Source of the DNA: a phage
Reading direction: 5' to 3' (one strand)
Sequence record: OZ346151.1
Length of the DNA stretch: 64,000 bases
Numbering within the stretch: position 1 is the first letter of the stretch; every line of letters begins with the position of its first letter. Below are positions 2-11,275 of this stretch, in pieces. The notes beneath the pieces are model-generated. The model saw only the letters and a program-made list of their open reading frames with translations, ran no database searches and was not told the origin of the DNA. Position numbers and translations under genes: made by a program.

Positions 2-1465
2 AACTGTGGATGTGCAAACGCAGTAGATACTTTTGCAAACAATGAGAAATTTATCCGTAGCTACGGAACAGTGGTCCTTGCAATGGACAACGATGCGGCT
101 AACGAGGTAGAGAAGCAAAAACACGTTATCAAAGGTGTTGAAGCCACACATAATATTGCAGCATTTTTGATGGCTGACAACGTTTACCACGTGGAATATC
201 CTGGCGAGGTAAACGACCCTGATGGTGTAAAAGATATCCGTGACATGCTGAAGGCTAAAAAGCTGGAAGATATTGTAAACATGTTCCGGCATCCTGTTAA
301 GTATGTGCCTGATGCTGTGTCGGATTTAGAAGACTTCTCTATCGAATCTTTGCGGAAAAAGACTTCCAACGGGGTAGATATCAGCGCAGAGTTTCCAAAA
401 CTGCAAAAAATGCTAAAAGGCTTGCACAAAGGGACACTCGTAATGCTTACAGGTCCATCAGGAGGTGGTAAAACAACTGTAGCCAAAAAACTGGAACACT
501 GTATTGCAAGATACCTAATGGACCCGACATGTCCAAAGGCCGATGACTACGAAGAGGATGATCGTCTATGCATGATTCATCTTGAGGAGGACCCAGAGGA
601 AGCAATTAACTCCTTGTATGCAAACCAGTTAGGGTTTGATGTTAAAGAGTTTGTTGAAGATCCTAGCCAGTTTTTAACTGATCAAGAACATGCAGAGATT
701 CACCAATCATGGGCAAAAGCTGGAAAAATCAAAGTGTTCAAACATTTCGGGTCTATTCCAGTGGACGAGTTGATTACCAAGCTTAAGCAAATGGTTTGCC
801 TGTACCATTGTCGCTATATTGTGCTGGATCACCTGTCTATGGTAATTTCAGGGCTTAATGTTAAAGATGAGCGAAAAGAACTGGACATGGCTATGACTCA
901 GCTGGCTGCGTTTTGTAAGCAGTTTAACGTGTTTATCTTGGTGATCGCTCACCTCAAACGTACAGAGATTGTGCCTCCTAAGGACAAGGATGGTAACCCA
1001 TTACCTTTCTGGTATCCTGTGCGAAAAGAGAATTTGCGAGGATCGGCTGGGCTTGAACAGTTGAGTTGGGTAGTCATAGGTGTCGAGGCCGAAGAAATGG
1101 TGGATCGTTCTCGTGGGCGTGTCCGTCTGGTAGGTCTTAAAAACCGTCCAGCAAAAACTTTAGGTATTGCTGACACTTTAGTTATGGACCCACATACAGG
1201 TAAGTTCCATGATGCCAGTAATTGGTACTGGGACAAAGAAATGCAGATGTTTACAGACGGAGAAGGTGGGGAGGTTGTTTGGAGACCTCAGGCCATGTTT
1301 GAGGACCAAGAGCATGCAGTTGTAGAAACACCTATGGGCAAGGTTGTAGCCGATAAGGTTGTAACTCCTACTATTAAGCCTGTTGACACGCAGGAAGACC
1401 TTCAGTACGATGATCCATCCTCTGATCCGGTCCCCGGTTTTGAGGATGATGAAACACCTTTTTAA
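2..1465 (+). CDS. primase-helicase (T7 gp4-like), 5'-partial
   Basis: Frame open from window edge (no upstream stop); Toprim-like LAMDND motif; Walker A GPSGGGKTT; DnaB-type helicase region; acidic C-terminal tail ending FEDDETPF. Confidence 0.85.
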   Translation, partial: NCGCANAVDTFANNEKFIRSYGTVVLAMDNDAANEVEKQKHVIKGVEATHNIAAFLMADNVYHVEYPGEVNDPDGVKDIRDMLKAKKLEDIVNMFRHPVKYVPDAVSDLEDFSIESLRKKTSNGVDISAEFPKLQKMLKGLHKGTLVMLTGPSGGGKTTVAKKLEHCIARYLMDPTCPKADDYEEDDRLCMIHLEEDPEEAINSLYANQLGFDVKEFVEDPSQFLTDQEHAEIHQSWAKAGKIKVFKHFGSIPVDELITKLKQMVCLYHCRYIVLDHLSMVISGLNVKDERKELDMAMTQLAAFCKQFNVFILVIAHLKRTEIVPPKDKDGNPLPFWYPVRKENLRGSAGLEQLSWVVIGVEAEEMVDRSRGRVRLVGLKNRPAKTLGIADTLVMDPHTGKFHDASNWYWDKEMQMFTDGEGGEVVWRPQAMFEDQEHAVVETPMGKVVADKVVTPTIKPVDTQEDLQYDDPSSDPVPGFEDDETPF

Positions 1466-1523: not shown

Positions 1524-3947
1524 ATGAGCATGTGGTCGTTCGACTTTGAGTCATCCGGTTTGCTGGAAGACCCAGATCTTTATTATCACTGCGGCCTGTT
1601 TAAAGAGCTGAATAAGAACCGTTTTATGCTGTTCCTTCCTCTAAATGACCGCACACACTACTCCGAGGAGGATATAGAAAAGGCTAAGAACTTCATTCTG
1701 GCAAAGAAAACTCTTTATAAAGATTTTGAAGTTCGCATAGCAGATTTTTCAGAGTTGGAAGGTTGGCTTACAGGAAATTCTGACTGGTCACCAACAGCTT
1801 TGAACTGCCATAACTGCTACAGTTATGACTTTATGCTGATGGAAAGATTATCTGGTATTCATTTTGATATGTTCCGTGATCCTAAGTGTATGGGGACTAT
1901 CAACGATCACCAGGTTAACCTGTTTGATACGTTGGCGATGAGCCGAATCTTGTGGCCTGATCGCCCTTTACCAAAAGGTTGTCCGGACTCTGTATTCAAC
2001 CCGGTTACTAAGAAAATGCAGCCTGTTGGTCCTCACGGCCTTATGGCATGGGGCTACGCCCTTGGTAACCAGAAAGTTCAAATTGATGACTGGCGCGATC
2101 TTCCGTTATGGAAGTATGTGGATCGTGTATTTGAGGACGTTATCATCCAGGAGCTGCTCTGGAAAGAGCTGGTAGCGGAATCAAAAGGTGTATTCTACGG
2201 CAAATCTGACATGCAGAACTTTATGTACGATCCTGCCAAAGAGAAGCCGAAAGGGTTCAAGAAGATCACCTGGAAGAACGCATTACGTCGAGGCATGTTG
2301 CAGCACTTCCTGATGGAGCTGCAGGCCCGTCAGGGTGTATACTTCGACATAGATGGGGCTATTGCTTTACGTGACCGCTGCGATGCGTGGATGAAAGAGA
2401 TCGCTGATCGTGTTGAACCACAACTGCCTTTAAAAGAGCTGTCAATGTCTCAGCGGCCCAAGTTCCCTGAAAAGCCGTTTAACCAAGATGGGACAATCTC
2501 TAATAATGGTTGGAAATGGTTAAAAGATAAGCTTGGCTATCCTGTGGACATGAGTGCTTTAGAGTTCAAAGCCCCACCTAAGCGAGCATTTACCTCTACA
2601 GGAGATGTCAGTAAGATGGGGATAAAATGGTGTGAAGAGATGGGCTGCAAAGACCACGATAAGATGGCTGATTTCTTGAGAGGTTATATTAAGGGCACCT
2701 CCACACCACAACCTTTACCTAAAGAGCTGATGGATCAGGCAATAAGCGATCTGCAACAGAAGCGAATGCCTGACTGCAAGATACCTATGAAAATCAGCAA
2801 TCAGGACGACATTAAGCGATACCTGATCAGTGCTGGTTGGCTTCCGACAATGTGGAGAACTAAGGATGTAACTAAGGACAGCAAGAAGAAAGCTCTACCT
2901 GATGCAGATGTTGATGCACGAGTATATGCATACATGGACGAGCTTTTAGAGTCAGAGTATTGTGACCTAATTATCAACTTCTGGAACAAAACTGATGCTA
3001 AGTTTCAGACAACAGTGCACAAGTTCCGAAGCTTTCCTAACTCCGAAAGGATTAAAAAGGAAGTGTTCGGGAAAATACGCAGAAAAGCCAGGGCACTTAT
3101 TACTTCTCCGCAACTGAAAGATACGTTTGGACACCTATGTCCGAATCTTGAAAAATTGAACGGAGAGATGGCTAAAGATATCGTCTTGTGGTTATCATTG
3201 CGAAACCGCAGATCGGTCCTTGATCCAATCAAGGAGGATAAGGTTGATACTGGTCTTCTTAATCACCCACGTTTGAAGATTGACCATAAGCTTCCTGCTA
3301 AAAGCTCTGGATTAACAAACACTTCCCGACAGAAACACAGTATTTGTGCAAACATGCCTAAACCATCTCCTAAAGTGGTTATGGGTAAAGAGATGCGTAG
3401 CTTGTGGGGTGTTCCTCCTGGATACTTTGAGATCGGTATTGACGGGTCCAACTTAGAGCAGCTTATCGGGGCTTGGGGTGCCTTTGAGTTCGACAACGGC
3501 TTGTACTATGATGTTGTAAGTAACGGGGACGCACACCAAAACAATGCTGAGGCATATACAAAAGTAGCAGGCAGAGAGGTGTCTCGTAACGACGGTAAAC
3601 CTATCACGTATGGGGTTATGTACGGGGCACAAAAAGATAAAGTTGCAGATATGCTGGATATCTCCCCAGAGTTGGGGCAAAGGGTGATCGATGCACTTTG
3701 GGATGCCAACCCAGGTCTTAAGGGGCGCAAAGAGGATCTGGAGAAATTCTGGGAAGCAACAGGTAAGAAGTTTATCTACTCTTTTGATGGTCATGCTATC
3801 TGGACCCGATCTAAACACTCTTTACTTAATGCATACCAACAAAATGGCGGCGCATCGTTGTGTGACTTAGTTGGGATACTCATGCACCATCAAATGGTGA
3901 AGCGTGGGTGGTACGATGAAGGTGTTCGTCGTATTATCTATTACCAT
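1524..3947 (+). CDS. DNA polymerase, family A (T7 gp5-like), exon 1
   Basis: SD AAGGAG before ATG 1524; exo motif FDFESSG; pol motif A IGIDGSNLEQ; motif B KPITYGVMYG; ORF stops right after ...IIYYH, i.e. before motif C. Confidence 0.85.
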
Positions 3948-4789
3948 AAATAACATTGTGGCTTCGTGCAGTGATGCACGTCGAAAACCTCTTTAATTGA
4001 CGGGAAGGCTAAGTTGACTTTTACACCTAAACATGGTAAAAGCTCAATATGCTAATCCGCAGCGAAGACTAAAGGGGTGTAGTTAAAATGGCTAGATCAG
4101 TTGAGTATCACGGATATACCGTGTTTGATGATGGAACAATACCTTTATCGAAACGTGATCATACAACAATGTTTTGTTTTGATAATGGTCGAGGTTACCT
4201 TTGCGTAACCATGTTCATCGAGGGGAAGCAGTGCACAAAAGGTGTCCACCACTTGGTTGCTGAATGCTTTGTATCAAACCCTGATCCTGAAAGGCTCACA
4301 TGGGTGAACCATAAGGACGGAAACAAATACAACAATGCATACTGGAACCTTGAATGGACCACCCCTGGTGGAAATATCAAACACGCTTATGATAATGACC
4401 TCAGAGTAAGGCCAGTCGGTGAGTATAATGCCAACGCTGTACTGACCGAGGATGAGGTAACGGAGATTTGCGAACTGTTACAAAGTGGTTTACGACAATG
4501 CGAGATTAGGGATCTTGGGTATCCTTATGAGACGGTCAGAGCCATAAAGCAAAGAAGACAGTGGAAACATATCTCTAAAAACTACACCTGGTAGTAACGT
4601 TCAGAGACTATCGAAAGCATAGCGCCAACATAAATTGGTGCGAAGAAGCGAGTAGAGTAGACCAGCAAGTGCGGTCGAAATGGGAGGTGCCTTGGTAACA
4701 AGGTAGTGAGATAGTCCGATCCATACAGGAAACTGTATGGCTGTGCACGTAATGGTGCGGGGTAGCTTAACGACCTACCTGAACTATTG
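3948..4789 (+). mobile_element. putative group I self-splicing intron in DNA polymerase gene, carrying HNH homing endonuclease ORF
   Basis: Exon 1 ends ...YYH after a U (3947); downstream frame resumes DEYQLQV...GRNWGDCH, restoring motif C (YHDE) and the family A C-terminus; possible P1 pairing exon CCAU with intron GUGG (3958-3961); G at 4789 precedes exon 2; boundaries +/- a few nt. Confidence 0.65.
4088..4594 (+). CDS. HNH homing endonuclease (intron-encoded)
   Basis: HNH motif ...VNHKDGNKYNNAYWNLEWTTPGGNIKH; own start and stop inside the polymerase interruption. Confidence 0.8.
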   Translation: MARSVEYHGYTVFDDGTIPLSKRDHTTMFCFDNGRGYLCVTMFIEGKQCTKGVHHLVAECFVSNPDPERLTWVNHKDGNKYNNAYWNLEWTTPGGNIKHAYDNDLRVRPVGEYNANAVLTEDEVTEICELLQSGLRQCEIRDLGYPYETVRAIKQRRQWKHISKNYTW

Positions 4790-7885: not shown

Positions 7886-7968
7886 CAAATACCTATTGTA
7901 ATTTACAGAAGGGGATGCTAAAATAGTGTCTCCTTCTATGTTGTTCAAATAAAATCGGAGATTCCATA

Positions 7969-8334
7969 ATGGAACAAATGAACGATCAAGCGTCGGTTGC
8001 GATGAACGAGCAAGAACAACCTCAAGAATTTTTCTTAGGGTTAAGTAAAGATCAAGTGTCTCTTCTGCTAGTGCTTTCTTCTTTCATGGGAAGACTTCAG
8101 GAGCTCACACAACAGCCAGAGGCTGAACAATTATTCCAAGCTTTGCGTGAAGAAGAAAAATATCGTCGTTTGGACTATGCCTTAGGTTGGGTAGCTCAAC
8201 AACGAGATATGCTGATGGCCCTCTCTGGGACCACAAGTTTTGCAATGGGGCTGTTGGCTCAAGTTCAGGACAAATTAATTCAAGCAGGGTTTGCACACAC
8301 GGCAAACACTAACGAAGAACAAGGAGACAAATAA
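7969..8334 (+). CDS. hypothetical protein
   Basis: SD GGAGA before ATG. Confidence 0.5.
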   Translation: MEQMNDQASVAMNEQEQPQEFFLGLSKDQVSLLLVLSSFMGRLQELTQQPEAEQLFQALREEEKYRRLDYALGWVAQQRDMLMALSGTTSFAMGLLAQVQDKLIQAGFAHTANTNEEQGDK

Positions 8335-9560
8335 TGAGCGTTATTCAACAATTCGCTAACCCGATGAATCCGCGTGAAACTGTTTTACTGGCTCACGGCA
8401 TGATTAAACGTGTCAGCATCAAGCCTATCAAAGGTGCTGATCCTACAACAGGTATTAAAACCACTGTGTGGCAAGGTAAGAAAATTGAATCCAGCCACAC
8501 CATCTCTTTACTGATTTCTGAACTGGATTCCTCTGATAACCTGCTTCAAGGTGGTGAAGAAGTTTGGATCAGCATGGGTGATAAGCTGCTTAAACCTGGT
8601 CATCAAGACTCTGTCTCTGTTAAAATTGATGACAAGTGGGAAACCGTAACGCCGGGATGGATCGTAAATATTCCTTTGAAGGCAAACGAGCATAACGGTA
8701 AGACCTATTACAAAGGCTCACTGGCTAAGATGGTCAAGCTGGGTGCAGGAGAGGCTCCAGCAGCGACTCAGCAGCAAAAACAGCAACAAGGTGCACAATC
8801 ACAAGGCCAGAAGCAGAAACCTCAGCAGAATGCCAATCAGGACGTTTTACGCATCTATGGTGATGTGACTCAGATTGTTGGCAACGTGGTTACTGTTAAT
8901 GACCACAAGATTGGCGAAGGTGCTATGGTTGTAACTGATGAGCAGCTTAAAGACCTGGTGGTAGGTGGTCGTGTTGCAGCCATTGTTGACAAAGACACCG
9001 GAAACATTATCAGTGGTTTCAAGGCCTATCCTCCTAAGGCAGAGAACGGCACTCAAGGCTCTGGTGGCAAGCGTAAATCCTCTTACGACCCTATCGGTGT
9101 GGAAACGGGGCATAGCATCAATGCGTTGCAGATCATCCTGGATCGCGGGTTTAAGGTAGACGACCCACTGGGCGTGGCTAAAACACTGCACGTAGTCACC
9201 ATTGAGCTTAAGAAAGAGTATGCTCAAGCCACCAACCGAGCTGAAGATGAAGTAGGTGCCAGTGTCGGTAATGCGGTGTTGAACGCTTGTCGCCGTATTG
9301 ACAAGAAAACGAAAGTTGATGATTTTGCAGTGGCAATTACTGCAGAAGCAAAAGATGTCTTGACTAATCTAGCTGAGCCGTTGTACGATTGGATCAAGAA
9401 CGGTGCTGAGTCCACTGACCATCAAGAACCTCAGGCTGCCAAACAGGAAGCAGCTCCACAGCAAAACACTGTAGACGCTCCTCCTGTAAATGATGCGGAA
9501 GATGACCCAATGGATCAGAATCCAGCACAGTACGTCTTTGATGATGACATCCCATTTTAA
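8334..9560 (+). CDS. putative single-stranded DNA-binding protein with E. coli SSB-type acidic C-terminal tail
   Basis: C-terminus ...DDDIPF identical to the E. coli SSB tip; Q-rich flexible linker; placement among replication genes. Confidence 0.6.
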   Translation: MSVIQQFANPMNPRETVLLAHGMIKRVSIKPIKGADPTTGIKTTVWQGKKIESSHTISLLISELDSSDNLLQGGEEVWISMGDKLLKPGHQDSVSVKIDDKWETVTPGWIVNIPLKANEHNGKTYYKGSLAKMVKLGAGEAPAATQQQKQQQGAQSQGQKQKPQQNANQDVLRIYGDVTQIVGNVVTVNDHKIGEGAMVVTDEQLKDLVVGGRVAAIVDKDTGNIISGFKAYPPKAENGTQGSGGKRKSSYDPIGVETGHSINALQIILDRGFKVDDPLGVAKTLHVVTIELKKEYAQATNRAEDEVGASVGNAVLNACRRIDKKTKVDDFAVAITAEAKDVLTNLAEPLYDWIKNGAESTDHQEPQAAKQEAAPQQNTVDAPPVNDAEDDPMDQNPAQYVFDDDIPF

Positions 9561-9622
9561 CATTTAGTTAACATAGCCCTGCCAGAAAGGGTGGGGTATT
9601 TTTGTATAAGGAGATCTAAAAA

Positions 9623-10039
9623 ATGACATTAGAAGATATCATTGTTAAACCTGAGAACTATGACCAATACAACCTGTCAACTCAATCTGTAGACCTTGGA
9701 TGCGCCACGGTCAGTGCGTGGCTGGTTAACGGAAAAGAGCTGGATAAATGCTTAGAAGCTCACATGTCTATTAACAAGTTTCTGGATGAAAATACTCACT
9801 GGCTTGAGGGTGCAGGAGTATATGCTTCATGGTTGGAAAGTATGGGATTCGACTACCAATCTGAAGAAGGGTGGTGGAGCTATTTAGCTATCTGCCCAGA
9901 GACGCTGCAATGCTTCATGAAATATTCTGAAGATTTGGAGTACCGGGCGGTGGTTGATAGTGCTATTGCCCGTTATAGCCGTAAACCTTTTTCCCACGAC
10001 ATTAAAACTGTGGAAGAGTTTGTTGAAGTTTTCTGTTGA
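9623..10039 (+). CDS. hypothetical protein
   Basis: SD AAGGAG before ATG. Confidence 0.5.
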   Translation: MTLEDIIVKPENYDQYNLSTQSVDLGCATVSAWLVNGKELDKCLEAHMSINKFLDENTHWLEGAGVYASWLESMGFDYQSEEGWWSYLAICPETLQCFMKYSEDLEYRAVVDSAIARYSRKPFSHDIKTVEEFVEVFC

Positions 10040-10401: not shown

Positions 10402-10827
10402 ATGATCTATGAAATGCCAAAACTGATTCGTGACGATGCCCAAAACGCCCACACCTTTATCATGGGCAAGCGCATGGATATTATTTGTCATAAAGATTTC
10501 TGGGAAGGTAGTTACTTCACAGAATATTTTGGTAAACTGGATAATGGTCTGCTGATCCAGTTCTACACCGATGCGGAAAACAATATCTGCTGGGAGTTCG
10601 AAACTGAAGATATCCATAAACTTTTCACCTTCCTAGGTATTAAGGTTGAGGCCAAGTTTGAAGAAGGCGAGTGCGACGATTGTGGATTCTACGAGGTAAC
10701 AGATTTCTATCTCCCAAGTGGTGAGAACCTTTACTATGAAAGCCACTTCGGCAACTCAAATATGCCACAAGGTTGGGATGAGTTTTTTGAAATTGCGGAA
10801 GAGGAGCTGACATACCGTGATTATTGA
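10402..10827 (+). CDS. hypothetical protein
   Basis: SD GGAGAA before ATG. Confidence 0.5.
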   Translation: MIYEMPKLIRDDAQNAHTFIMGKRMDIICHKDFWEGSYFTEYFGKLDNGLLIQFYTDAENNICWEFETEDIHKLFTFLGIKVEAKFEEGECDDCGFYEVTDFYLPSGENLYYESHFGNSNMPQGWDEFFEIAEEELTYRDY

Positions 10828-11275
10828 TACTGTAGCGGGAGATTTAATCTCCCTTTTTAAGAGCGGTGCTGGTCACCTGATCCACGGTTGTAACTGCTTT
10901 CATACAATGGGTGCAGGCATAGCGAAAGATATTGCCCGTGAGTTCCCTCAAGCACTGGCAGCCGACAAAGAGACTGCCTATGGTAATCTGGACAAGCTGG
11001 GTATGTTTTCTTGTTGGGAGCATTTTGCCAAGAACAGGGTCGTATATGGAATCAACCTGTATACCCAGTTCTACCCAGGGCCCAATGCTGAATACTTCTC
11101 AATAATGAAAGGTTTTGAGCGAGTCAACGAGGTATTCAAAGGTGTGTCATTGCCGTTCTACATTCCTAAAATTGGATGCGGTATTGGCGGTCTAAAGTGG
11201 GAACATGTAGAAGATGTAATTAATCTTGCAACCACAGATATTGATGTGGTTGTAGTAGAGTACAAAAAGTGTTGA
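10817..11275 (+). CDS. macrodomain protein (TARG1/DarG-like ADP-ribose processing fold)
   Basis: GTG start with SD GAGGAG; motifs HGCNCFHTMGAGIAKDIA and IPKIGCGIGG match macrodomain signature. Confidence 0.6.
   Translation: MIIDTVAGDLISLFKSGAGHLIHGCNCFHTMGAGIAKDIAREFPQALAADKETAYGNLDKLGMFSCWEHFAKNRVVYGINLYTQFYPGPNAEYFSIMKGFERVNEVFKGVSLPFYIPKIGCGIGGLKWEHVEDVINLATTDIDVVVVEYKKC

Follow-up and report, generated by a model that had tools for sequence, protein, structure and literature searches.

The C-terminal tip of SSB, the protein that binds single-stranded DNA, is a bacterial hub for replication restart, repair and recombination. The E. coli protein ends in ...MDFDDDIPF-177 (PMC3152348), with the hexapeptide DDDIPF at the tip (PMC5872125). 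In complexes of this C-terminus (SSB-Ct) the I/V, P and F residues are the ordered and essential ones; the canonical pockets hold the terminal Phe through its carboxylate, and in the RecO complex the terminal carboxylate is anchored by an arginine (PMC3152348). In phage T7, the tails of gp2.5 (ending ...EADEDGDF) and gp4 (ending ...WSNDTDF) bind basic patches on gp5, that of gp4 occupying the front basic patch. A bioRxiv preprint dated 30 April 2026 ascribes to a further phage protein, Bas52_0087, an SSB-like nature, two predicted OB folds and a disordered C-terminus that finishes in FDDDIPF like the C-tip of E. coli SSB (10.64898/2026.04.29.721553). Here we analyze its orthologue, a protein of 408 amino acids (aa) encoded in a stretch of phage DNA of 64,000 nucleotides (sequence record OZ346151.1; the whole stretch is called the window below). 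An original prediction made from the letters alone had taken this protein for a putative SSB with an E. coli-like end, and had also pointed to the tail of a primase-helicase encoded at the left end of the window.

We consider it probable that the 408-aa protein is the replicative SSB of the phage, and that its tip docks into the SSB-Ct pockets of host proteins and probably onto the phage polymerase too. The protein ends in ...NPAQYVFDDDIPF (...YVFDDDIPF), followed by the stop codon TAA at 9558-9560. The identity with the tail of E. coli SSB that was originally predicted is real, and it is longer than the six residues then counted, since seven match, FDDDIPF. Chance was estimated from the composition of the open reading frames (ORFs) of the window, 176 of which have at least 60 aa: the probability of a DDDIPF end is 2.7e-8 per ORF and 4.8e-6 across the 176, and for ends of the form [DE][DE]xPF two were observed against 0.005 expected, those of the 408-aa protein and of the helicase only. 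The 55 complete homologues, whose identity goes down to 33%, all share a terminal P-F, preceded by [IVL] at position -3, [DS] at -4 and [DE] at -5, and the entropy of the tip columns is 0-1 bit vs 2-2.8 bits across the 25 residues upstream. A profile of the OB domain only gave 119 representatives at the 50% identity level, many of them 270-300 aa long and without the second barrel described below; an end of the form [DE]x[IVL]PF is kept by approximately 95% of the ~100 complete distant representatives, and in several it reads exactly PPMDFDDDIPF; PHROG 4477 is matched by 98 of the 101 distant relatives scanned. By these alignments, selection targets the tip itself, precisely at those residues found ordered and essential when SSB-Ct is bound in complexes. 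Within the window, and within 110 kb of the sister genome JLBYU08, only the acidic tail resembles canonical SSBs; a further SSB is not annotated in those 110 kb, and tblastn detected none there or in the window.

The layout of the protein, an OB domain followed by a low-complexity linker and an acidic tail with the tip, is that of an SSB. A full-length AlphaFold2 model was built on 29 homologues (multi-domain predicted template modeling score 0.37), and the N-terminal domain was modeled alone after a null Foldseek search with the full-length model. The N-terminal model is a high-confidence OB fold, and SSBs are its nearest structures, with ~10% identity in the structural alignment with E. coli SSB; the OB fold looked for in the N-terminal ~150 aa was thereby found, at aa 1-139. 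The full-length search also returned short OB-domain matches with low root-mean-square deviation, which fit the second OB-like barrel. The protein shares with canonical SSBs a predicted SSB-type OB fold, and a disordered linker and acidic tip with an [IVL]PF C-terminus. According to the models it is nevertheless not a canonical SSB: it has two predicted OB folds and a helical bundle, and neither the protein nor any of 101 family members matches PF00436, the canonical SSB family, at E <= 0.01. Homology of the OB profile to the 164-aa annotated SSB of the phage morffagbaw was tried with hhalign and was not used; the match covers 29 columns only, with a probability of 10.6%, and centers on a common EYNGK(T/M)Y hairpin.

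The orthologue has been linked to antiphage defense. Escape mutants of Bas52 from the DRT10 reverse-transcriptase defense carry D252V and Y351C, both in Bas52_0087, which is required for triggering DRT10; moreover, the dosage of SbcB/ExoI modulates DRT10 restriction, and competition with ExoI/SbcB was proposed as possible (10.64898/2026.04.29.721553). The gene bas52_0087 (QXV84166.1, Escherichia phage RudolfGeigy) lies at the same locus, with the same flanking genes, and its product has the same length as the window protein, with 402 of 408 residues identical (98.5%). Of the six substitutions, one immediately precedes the tip (V401 here, S in Bas52). The window protein has D252 and Y351, both of them in the helical bundle. 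The SSB half of the present finding has therefore been reported before, in the form of a prediction backed by a genetic phenotype. The preprint leaves aside the helicase tail, the conservation across the family, the helical bundle as a separate domain and the homing-endonuclease alleles.

PHROG 4477 ("unknown function") is the sole family match of the 408-aa protein (E 1.7e-172, residues 1-408 vs profile 1-393 of 393), and the family is widespread, with no function in any curated library. The protein of phage Murica is 99.8% identical, and 115 phage records encode the protein at an identity of at least 95%, 116 at at least 90%. On this basis the window is assigned to an rV5-like myovirus (Vequintavirus, rV5/Murica-like). 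Literature searches for published work on an SSB of rV5 or of Vequintavirus gave nothing specific. Sixteen records named "Campylobacter phage" (host C. jejuni) also match the protein, with 98.8-99.8% identity for those listed, and the helicase of one phage of this group, C15, is 100% identical to the window helicase. From these identities, the records look like E. coli rV5-like phages deposited under another host name.

By its gene content, the left end of the window looks like a replication module in the style of T7, encoded on the + strand, with the order primase-helicase (to 1465), Pol A, a run of small ORFs, a 121-aa ORF and the 408-aa gene. The helicase matches DnaB_C (E 7.7e-14), AAA_25 and PHROG 239 primase/helicase (E 1.1e-111) and is 27.6% identical to the T7 helicase. 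Its primase part lies beyond the window; a full-length protein 100% identical to it (P0057) has 692 aa, and Toprim_2 is found in distant relatives. As had been predicted, its tail is acidic with a terminal Phe, ending in ...PVPGFEDDETPF (...GFEDDETPF) at the stop codon, and 106 of the 120 best helicase homologues, those of Vibrio and marine phages included, end in F, nearly all of them as [DE][DE]xPF (DNDTPF, DSDSPF, DDEPF). The polymerase is 25% identical to T7 gp5 (E 1e-18), and its K748/K749 align in BLAST with R590/R591 of the T7 front basic patch, an alignment that is weak and suggestive only. The precedent invoked in the original prediction, contact of the acidic Phe-ended tails of gp2.5 and gp4 with the T7 polymerase, agrees with their binding to the basic patches of gp5. 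A Toprim/DnaB helicase and a Pol A or exonuclease gene are also found close upstream of the distant family members P0053 and P0056; therefore, the replication context is conserved, and the order helicase, Pol A, SSB-like gene is kept even at ~30% identity.

The DNA encoding the tip is itself a target of insertion in some relatives. Eleven of 55 cluster representatives extend ~15 residues past IPF, with the sequence APVGLQYGKSRIHAL (APVGLQY...). In a DNA alignment with the window, phage DrSchubert (Bas50) has an insertion of ~640 bp exactly inside the IPF codons. The product of this insertion is a 207-aa EndoVII/HNH-type endonuclease (PHROG 1035), whose start codon is found inside ...CAATATGG, where the SSB frame reads Q-Y-G. 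The extension is thus the ribosome-binding site and first codons of the endonuclease, read in another frame, and for this reason APVGLQYGKSRIHAL was rejected as a second functional motif and is regarded as a homing-endonuclease footprint instead. The same cassette, with the same 29-nt overlap, is present at the end of the 164-aa annotated ssb gene of the unrelated phage morffagbaw. The same extension follows ...DTPF in the helicase homologues P0064 and P0066, and in the helicase of Klebsiella phage K54_rec6 it is followed by an HNH gene. From these comparisons, unrelated phages appear to have a common homing site in the acidic-PF tip DNA of their SSB and helicase genes. The allele of the window is uninterrupted, with an empty site at 9550-9560 and no homing-endonuclease cassette. 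In Vibrio phage 115E34-1 the extension is present and no endonuclease is annotated. A literature search for homing endonucleases at the 3' ends of ssb genes gave nothing specific.

In the mechanism that we infer, which comprises ssDNA binding, oligomerization and every contact of the tip with a partner, the N-terminal SSB-type OB fold (together with the second OB-like barrel in the long forms) would bind ssDNA, the four-helix bundle would drive self-association, and the 46-residue acidic disordered tail would present the bacterial SSB-Ct tip FDDDIPF. Judging from the model, the oligomer is probably not formed via the SSB tetramer interface. The protein would work in a T7-type replisome made of a gp4-like primase-helicase and a gp5-like Pol A, with no clamp. 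On ssDNA the SSB tip would be freed, and its I-P-F would bind SSB-Ct-binding proteins at their hydrophobic pocket and basic rim. Among host targets, the best supported would be SSB-interacting enzymes such as ExoI/SbcB, which might be either recruited or out-competed, and the disturbed ssDNA processing may be what DRT10 senses. The ...DDETPF tail of the helicase would most likely find its docking site in a basic patch on the phage polymerase, like that of T7 gp4 on gp5, and the SSB tip would probably compete for the polymerase site, as gp2.5 does.

Several results weigh against the proposal that the protein is a replicative SSB docking on host pockets. Sequence and profile searches of Pfam, NCBIfam and the PDB with the 408-aa protein or the OB-domain alignment gave no match, the best being at noise level (PIN_9, E 0.09; D7 protein, E 0.14; bL19, E 1.4), and no link at the sequence level to any characterized SSB family was found. 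Foldseek with the full-length model against the PDB gave nothing at E <= 0.001. Bas52_0087 expressed alone did not trigger DRT10 (10.64898/2026.04.29.721553), so its action needs the context of infection. Two distant phages keep DDDIPF at the SSB-like tip, and their helicases end in ...PNKDF or ...PEGSY; therefore, the two tips are not one co-evolving code. To judge from the homologues, the SSB tip tracks the bacterial consensus and the helicase tail behaves as a lineage-specific tail of the T7 type. Finally, the homing-endonuclease insertion that extends the protein past IPF by 15 residues is carried by about a third of close relatives, ~43 phage records vs ~116, and phages with an internal Phe, such as Bas50, are viable isolates, so that either a free terminal Phe with its carboxylate is not indispensable for growth or the partner tolerates capping. 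The earlier interpretation is supported in part, its observation of the two tails being confirmed.

Other explanations have been considered, and these and the proposal of a host-docking replicative SSB are not mutually exclusive. Both PF tips could form a code internal to the phage, tethering SSB and helicase to the phage Pol A, with the identity to the host tip inherited or convergent and of no role towards the host. A T7-type replisome is predicted here and T7 uses exactly such logic; moreover, the PF tip of the helicase is widely kept among its homologues, and the SSB tip of phage HK620 serves a phage partner. We regard this explanation as unlikely, since the SSB tip matches the bacterial consensus residue by residue (several members have PPMDFDDDIPF) and stays fixed where the helicase tail becomes ...NKDF or ...EGSY. 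At the position of I/V in the SSB-like tip the helicase tip also has T/E/S, so that neither can be exchanged for the other as a copy, and the genetic tie of the orthologue to an ExoI-modulated defense points to host ssDNA metabolism.

It seems quite unlikely that the tip serves mainly as a decoy that titrates host SSB partners, either stopping repair and restart or shielding phage ssDNA from ExoI and RecJ. Such a take-over would be consistent with the identity of the tip to that of the host, with the SbcB competition proposed in the preprint and with the effect of SbcB dosage on DRT10 restriction. However, a carboxylate-dependent decoy would be lost in the viable relatives whose IPF is internal, and ordinary phage and plasmid SSBs bear the same tip, which is there read as recruitment.

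Fold-back of the tail on the OB groove has been described for E. coli SSB, gp2.5 and gp32. The acidic tail could likewise serve chiefly to fold onto a basic OB groove here and gate ssDNA binding and cooperativity, with PF as part of the contact. The composition of the tail (11 acidic residues and one basic) suits this idea, and tail-OB interaction with ssDNA-dependent release of the tail is discussed for SSBs in the literature; nevertheless, charge alone needs no invariant [IVL]-P-F, the acidic stretch upstream varies freely and the excess of basic residues in OB fold 1 is slight (17 K/R vs 14 D/E). Self-regulation would moreover be compatible with partner docking, and as an explanation of the tip we find it very unlikely. 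That the protein is not an SSB and is instead an OB-fold accessory (for example a mediator of recombination, or part of a primosome or loader) with an SSB-like tip to reach SSB partners is highly improbable, since the phage would then be without any SSB, the OB-linker-acidic-tip layout and the place beside helicase and polymerase are traits of SSB genes, and the same homing endonuclease enters the 408-aa gene and the 164-aa ssb gene of morffagbaw at equivalent codons.

By placing the host's tip, unchanged, on an SSB of different structure, a lytic phage can borrow or obstruct the host hub, and the orthologue is already tied genetically to the activation of DRT10, modulated by the SSB partner ExoI. 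Beyond the preprint, the present analysis adds the invariance of the tip across the large unannotated family PHROG 4477 and its two-OB-plus-helical-bundle architecture outside Pfam; a large cognate helicase clade with a related PF tip, which fits a replisome wired as in T7; and the apparent homing of an endonuclease into the tip DNA, whose natural capped-tip alleles are ready reagents on the role of the free Phe. These additions are modest, as a phage SSB with a host-like tip and acidic tails of the T7 kind is a textbook idea. The finding is solid and not surprising, the specific protein having already been described. A bolder synthesis, which we put forward tentatively and consider doubtful as a whole, is that the acidic-PF tips of SSB-like protein and helicase may together form one docking code, by which a T7-type replisome is connected to the SSB interactome of the host, and the tip DNA may be the homing site of an EndoVII/HNH family that invades, at the same codons, SSB and helicase genes in phages that are unrelated, capping the Phe with ~15 residues. 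If so, natural alleles with and without the homing endonuclease gene (HEG+ and HEG-) would be tip-capped and tip-free variants, differing in partner binding and possibly in sensing of the DRT10 type.

Table 1. Features of the SSB-like gene, its product and the replication module, with homing cassettes of relatives (positions in the window unless a locus is named; pLDDT, predicted local distance difference test).
Feature	Position	Strand	Remarks
SSB-like protein gene, 408 aa	8334-9560	+	PHROG 4477; orthologue of Bas52_0087
OB fold 1, aa 1-139, predicted ssDNA-binding domain	8334-8750	+	AlphaFold2 beta-barrel
Q-rich disordered linker, aa 140-169, EAPAATQQQKQQQGAQSQGQKQKPQQNANQD	8751-8840	+	pLDDT below 50
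Second small OB-like beta-barrel, aa 170-235	8841-9038	+	missing in family members of 270-310 aa
Four-helix bundle, aa 253-355, putative oligomerization interface	9090-9398	+	carries DRT10 escape positions D252, Y351
Acidic disordered tail, aa 363-408 (46 residues; 11 D/E, 1 K/R)	9420-9557	+	pLDDT below 50
Tip FDDDIPF, last seven residues of E. coli SSB	9537-9557	+	
Terminator-like hairpin with T-run, right after the 408-aa gene	9576-9597	+	
ORF of 121 aa, PHROG 7310 "unknown"	7969-8334	+	stop overlaps SSB-like start (ATGA)
gp4-type primase-helicase, 3' part of gene	2-1465	+	runs off left window edge
Helicase tip FEDDETPF	1439-1462	+	acidic tail: 15 D/E, 4 K/R in last 60 aa
T7 gp5-type family A DNA polymerase, exon 1	1524-3953	+	PHROG 17, DNA_pol_A; candidate partner for docking of either tip
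Polymerase exon 2, 118 aa	4787-5143	+	homologous coding sequence "putative DNA polymerase" in JLBYU08
Cassette sites (PHROG 1035/2340)	L002 2501-3158 (DrSchubert; endonuclease 2535-3158); L003 2501-2975 (morffagbaw); L010 2501-3129 (K54_rec6)		

The 121-aa ORF and the SSB-like gene form a pair flanked by terminator-like hairpins (7907-7937 and 9576-9597) and are probably co-transcribed. In the GenBank record JLBYU08 the 121-aa ORF is labeled "putative SSB"; as a second SSB it was rejected for want of support, and it matches nothing in Pfam or NCBIfam and does not resemble the corresponding upstream ORF in a distant relative. In the distant relative L006, the ORF just upstream of the SSB-like gene (9837-10001), which overlaps its start, matches Pfam Phage_T7_Gp5_9. 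T7 gp5.9 is labeled "host recBCD nuclease inhibitor" in the T7 record, and this neighbor may link the SSB-like family to the control of host nucleases. A few genes downstream of the SSB-like gene, a 152-aa ORF (10817-11275) has a Macro-domain match (E 1e-5), and its counterpart in JLBYU08 is labeled macro domain protein.

A group I intron (3954-4786) interrupts the polymerase gene and carries an HNH ORF of ~510 nt (4088-4594). The version of the intron in JLBYU08 that lacks this ORF matches RF00028 of Rfam (72.5 bits, E 1.5e-18); a scan of the whole window at the Rfam gathering threshold gave nothing and missed the intron with the HNH ORF too. The GC skew of the window flips from + to - near 24 kb (around 23-24 kb) and back near 60 kb, which fits blocks of genes transcribed in opposite directions.

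Among the known systems, the SSB of phage HK620 has a tip, NDYPPF, that also resembles the host tip, and its last six residues are needed to recruit a partner on ssDNA; it differs in being a distant canonical SSB tetramer whose partner is the annealase Sak4, and no Sak4-type gene was seen adjoining the 408-aa gene. T7 gp2.5 is the SSB of a replisome of the gp4/gp5 type and has an acidic tail whose terminal Phe is needed for contact with the polymerase. However, gp2.5 has a single OB fold and ends in ...DGDF, not ...DIPF; the 408-aa protein has no detectable sequence similarity to it, gp2.5-like structures (DUF2815, 4klk) were only weak Foldseek matches (E 0.07), and neither sequence nor specific structural similarity places the protein among the T7 gp2.5-like SSBs. 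The window helicase is a homologue of T7 gp4 with an acidic tail ending in Phe, although its [DE][DE]xPF tip is nearer to the SSB-Ct form than the ...NDTDF of T7. From E. coli SSB the phage protein differs by its 408 aa, the second barrel, the four-helix bundle and the lack of a PF00436 match, and it resembles it in the OB fold, the low-complexity linker and the acidic tip, the last seven residues being identical and including the I, P and F that matter for the pockets.

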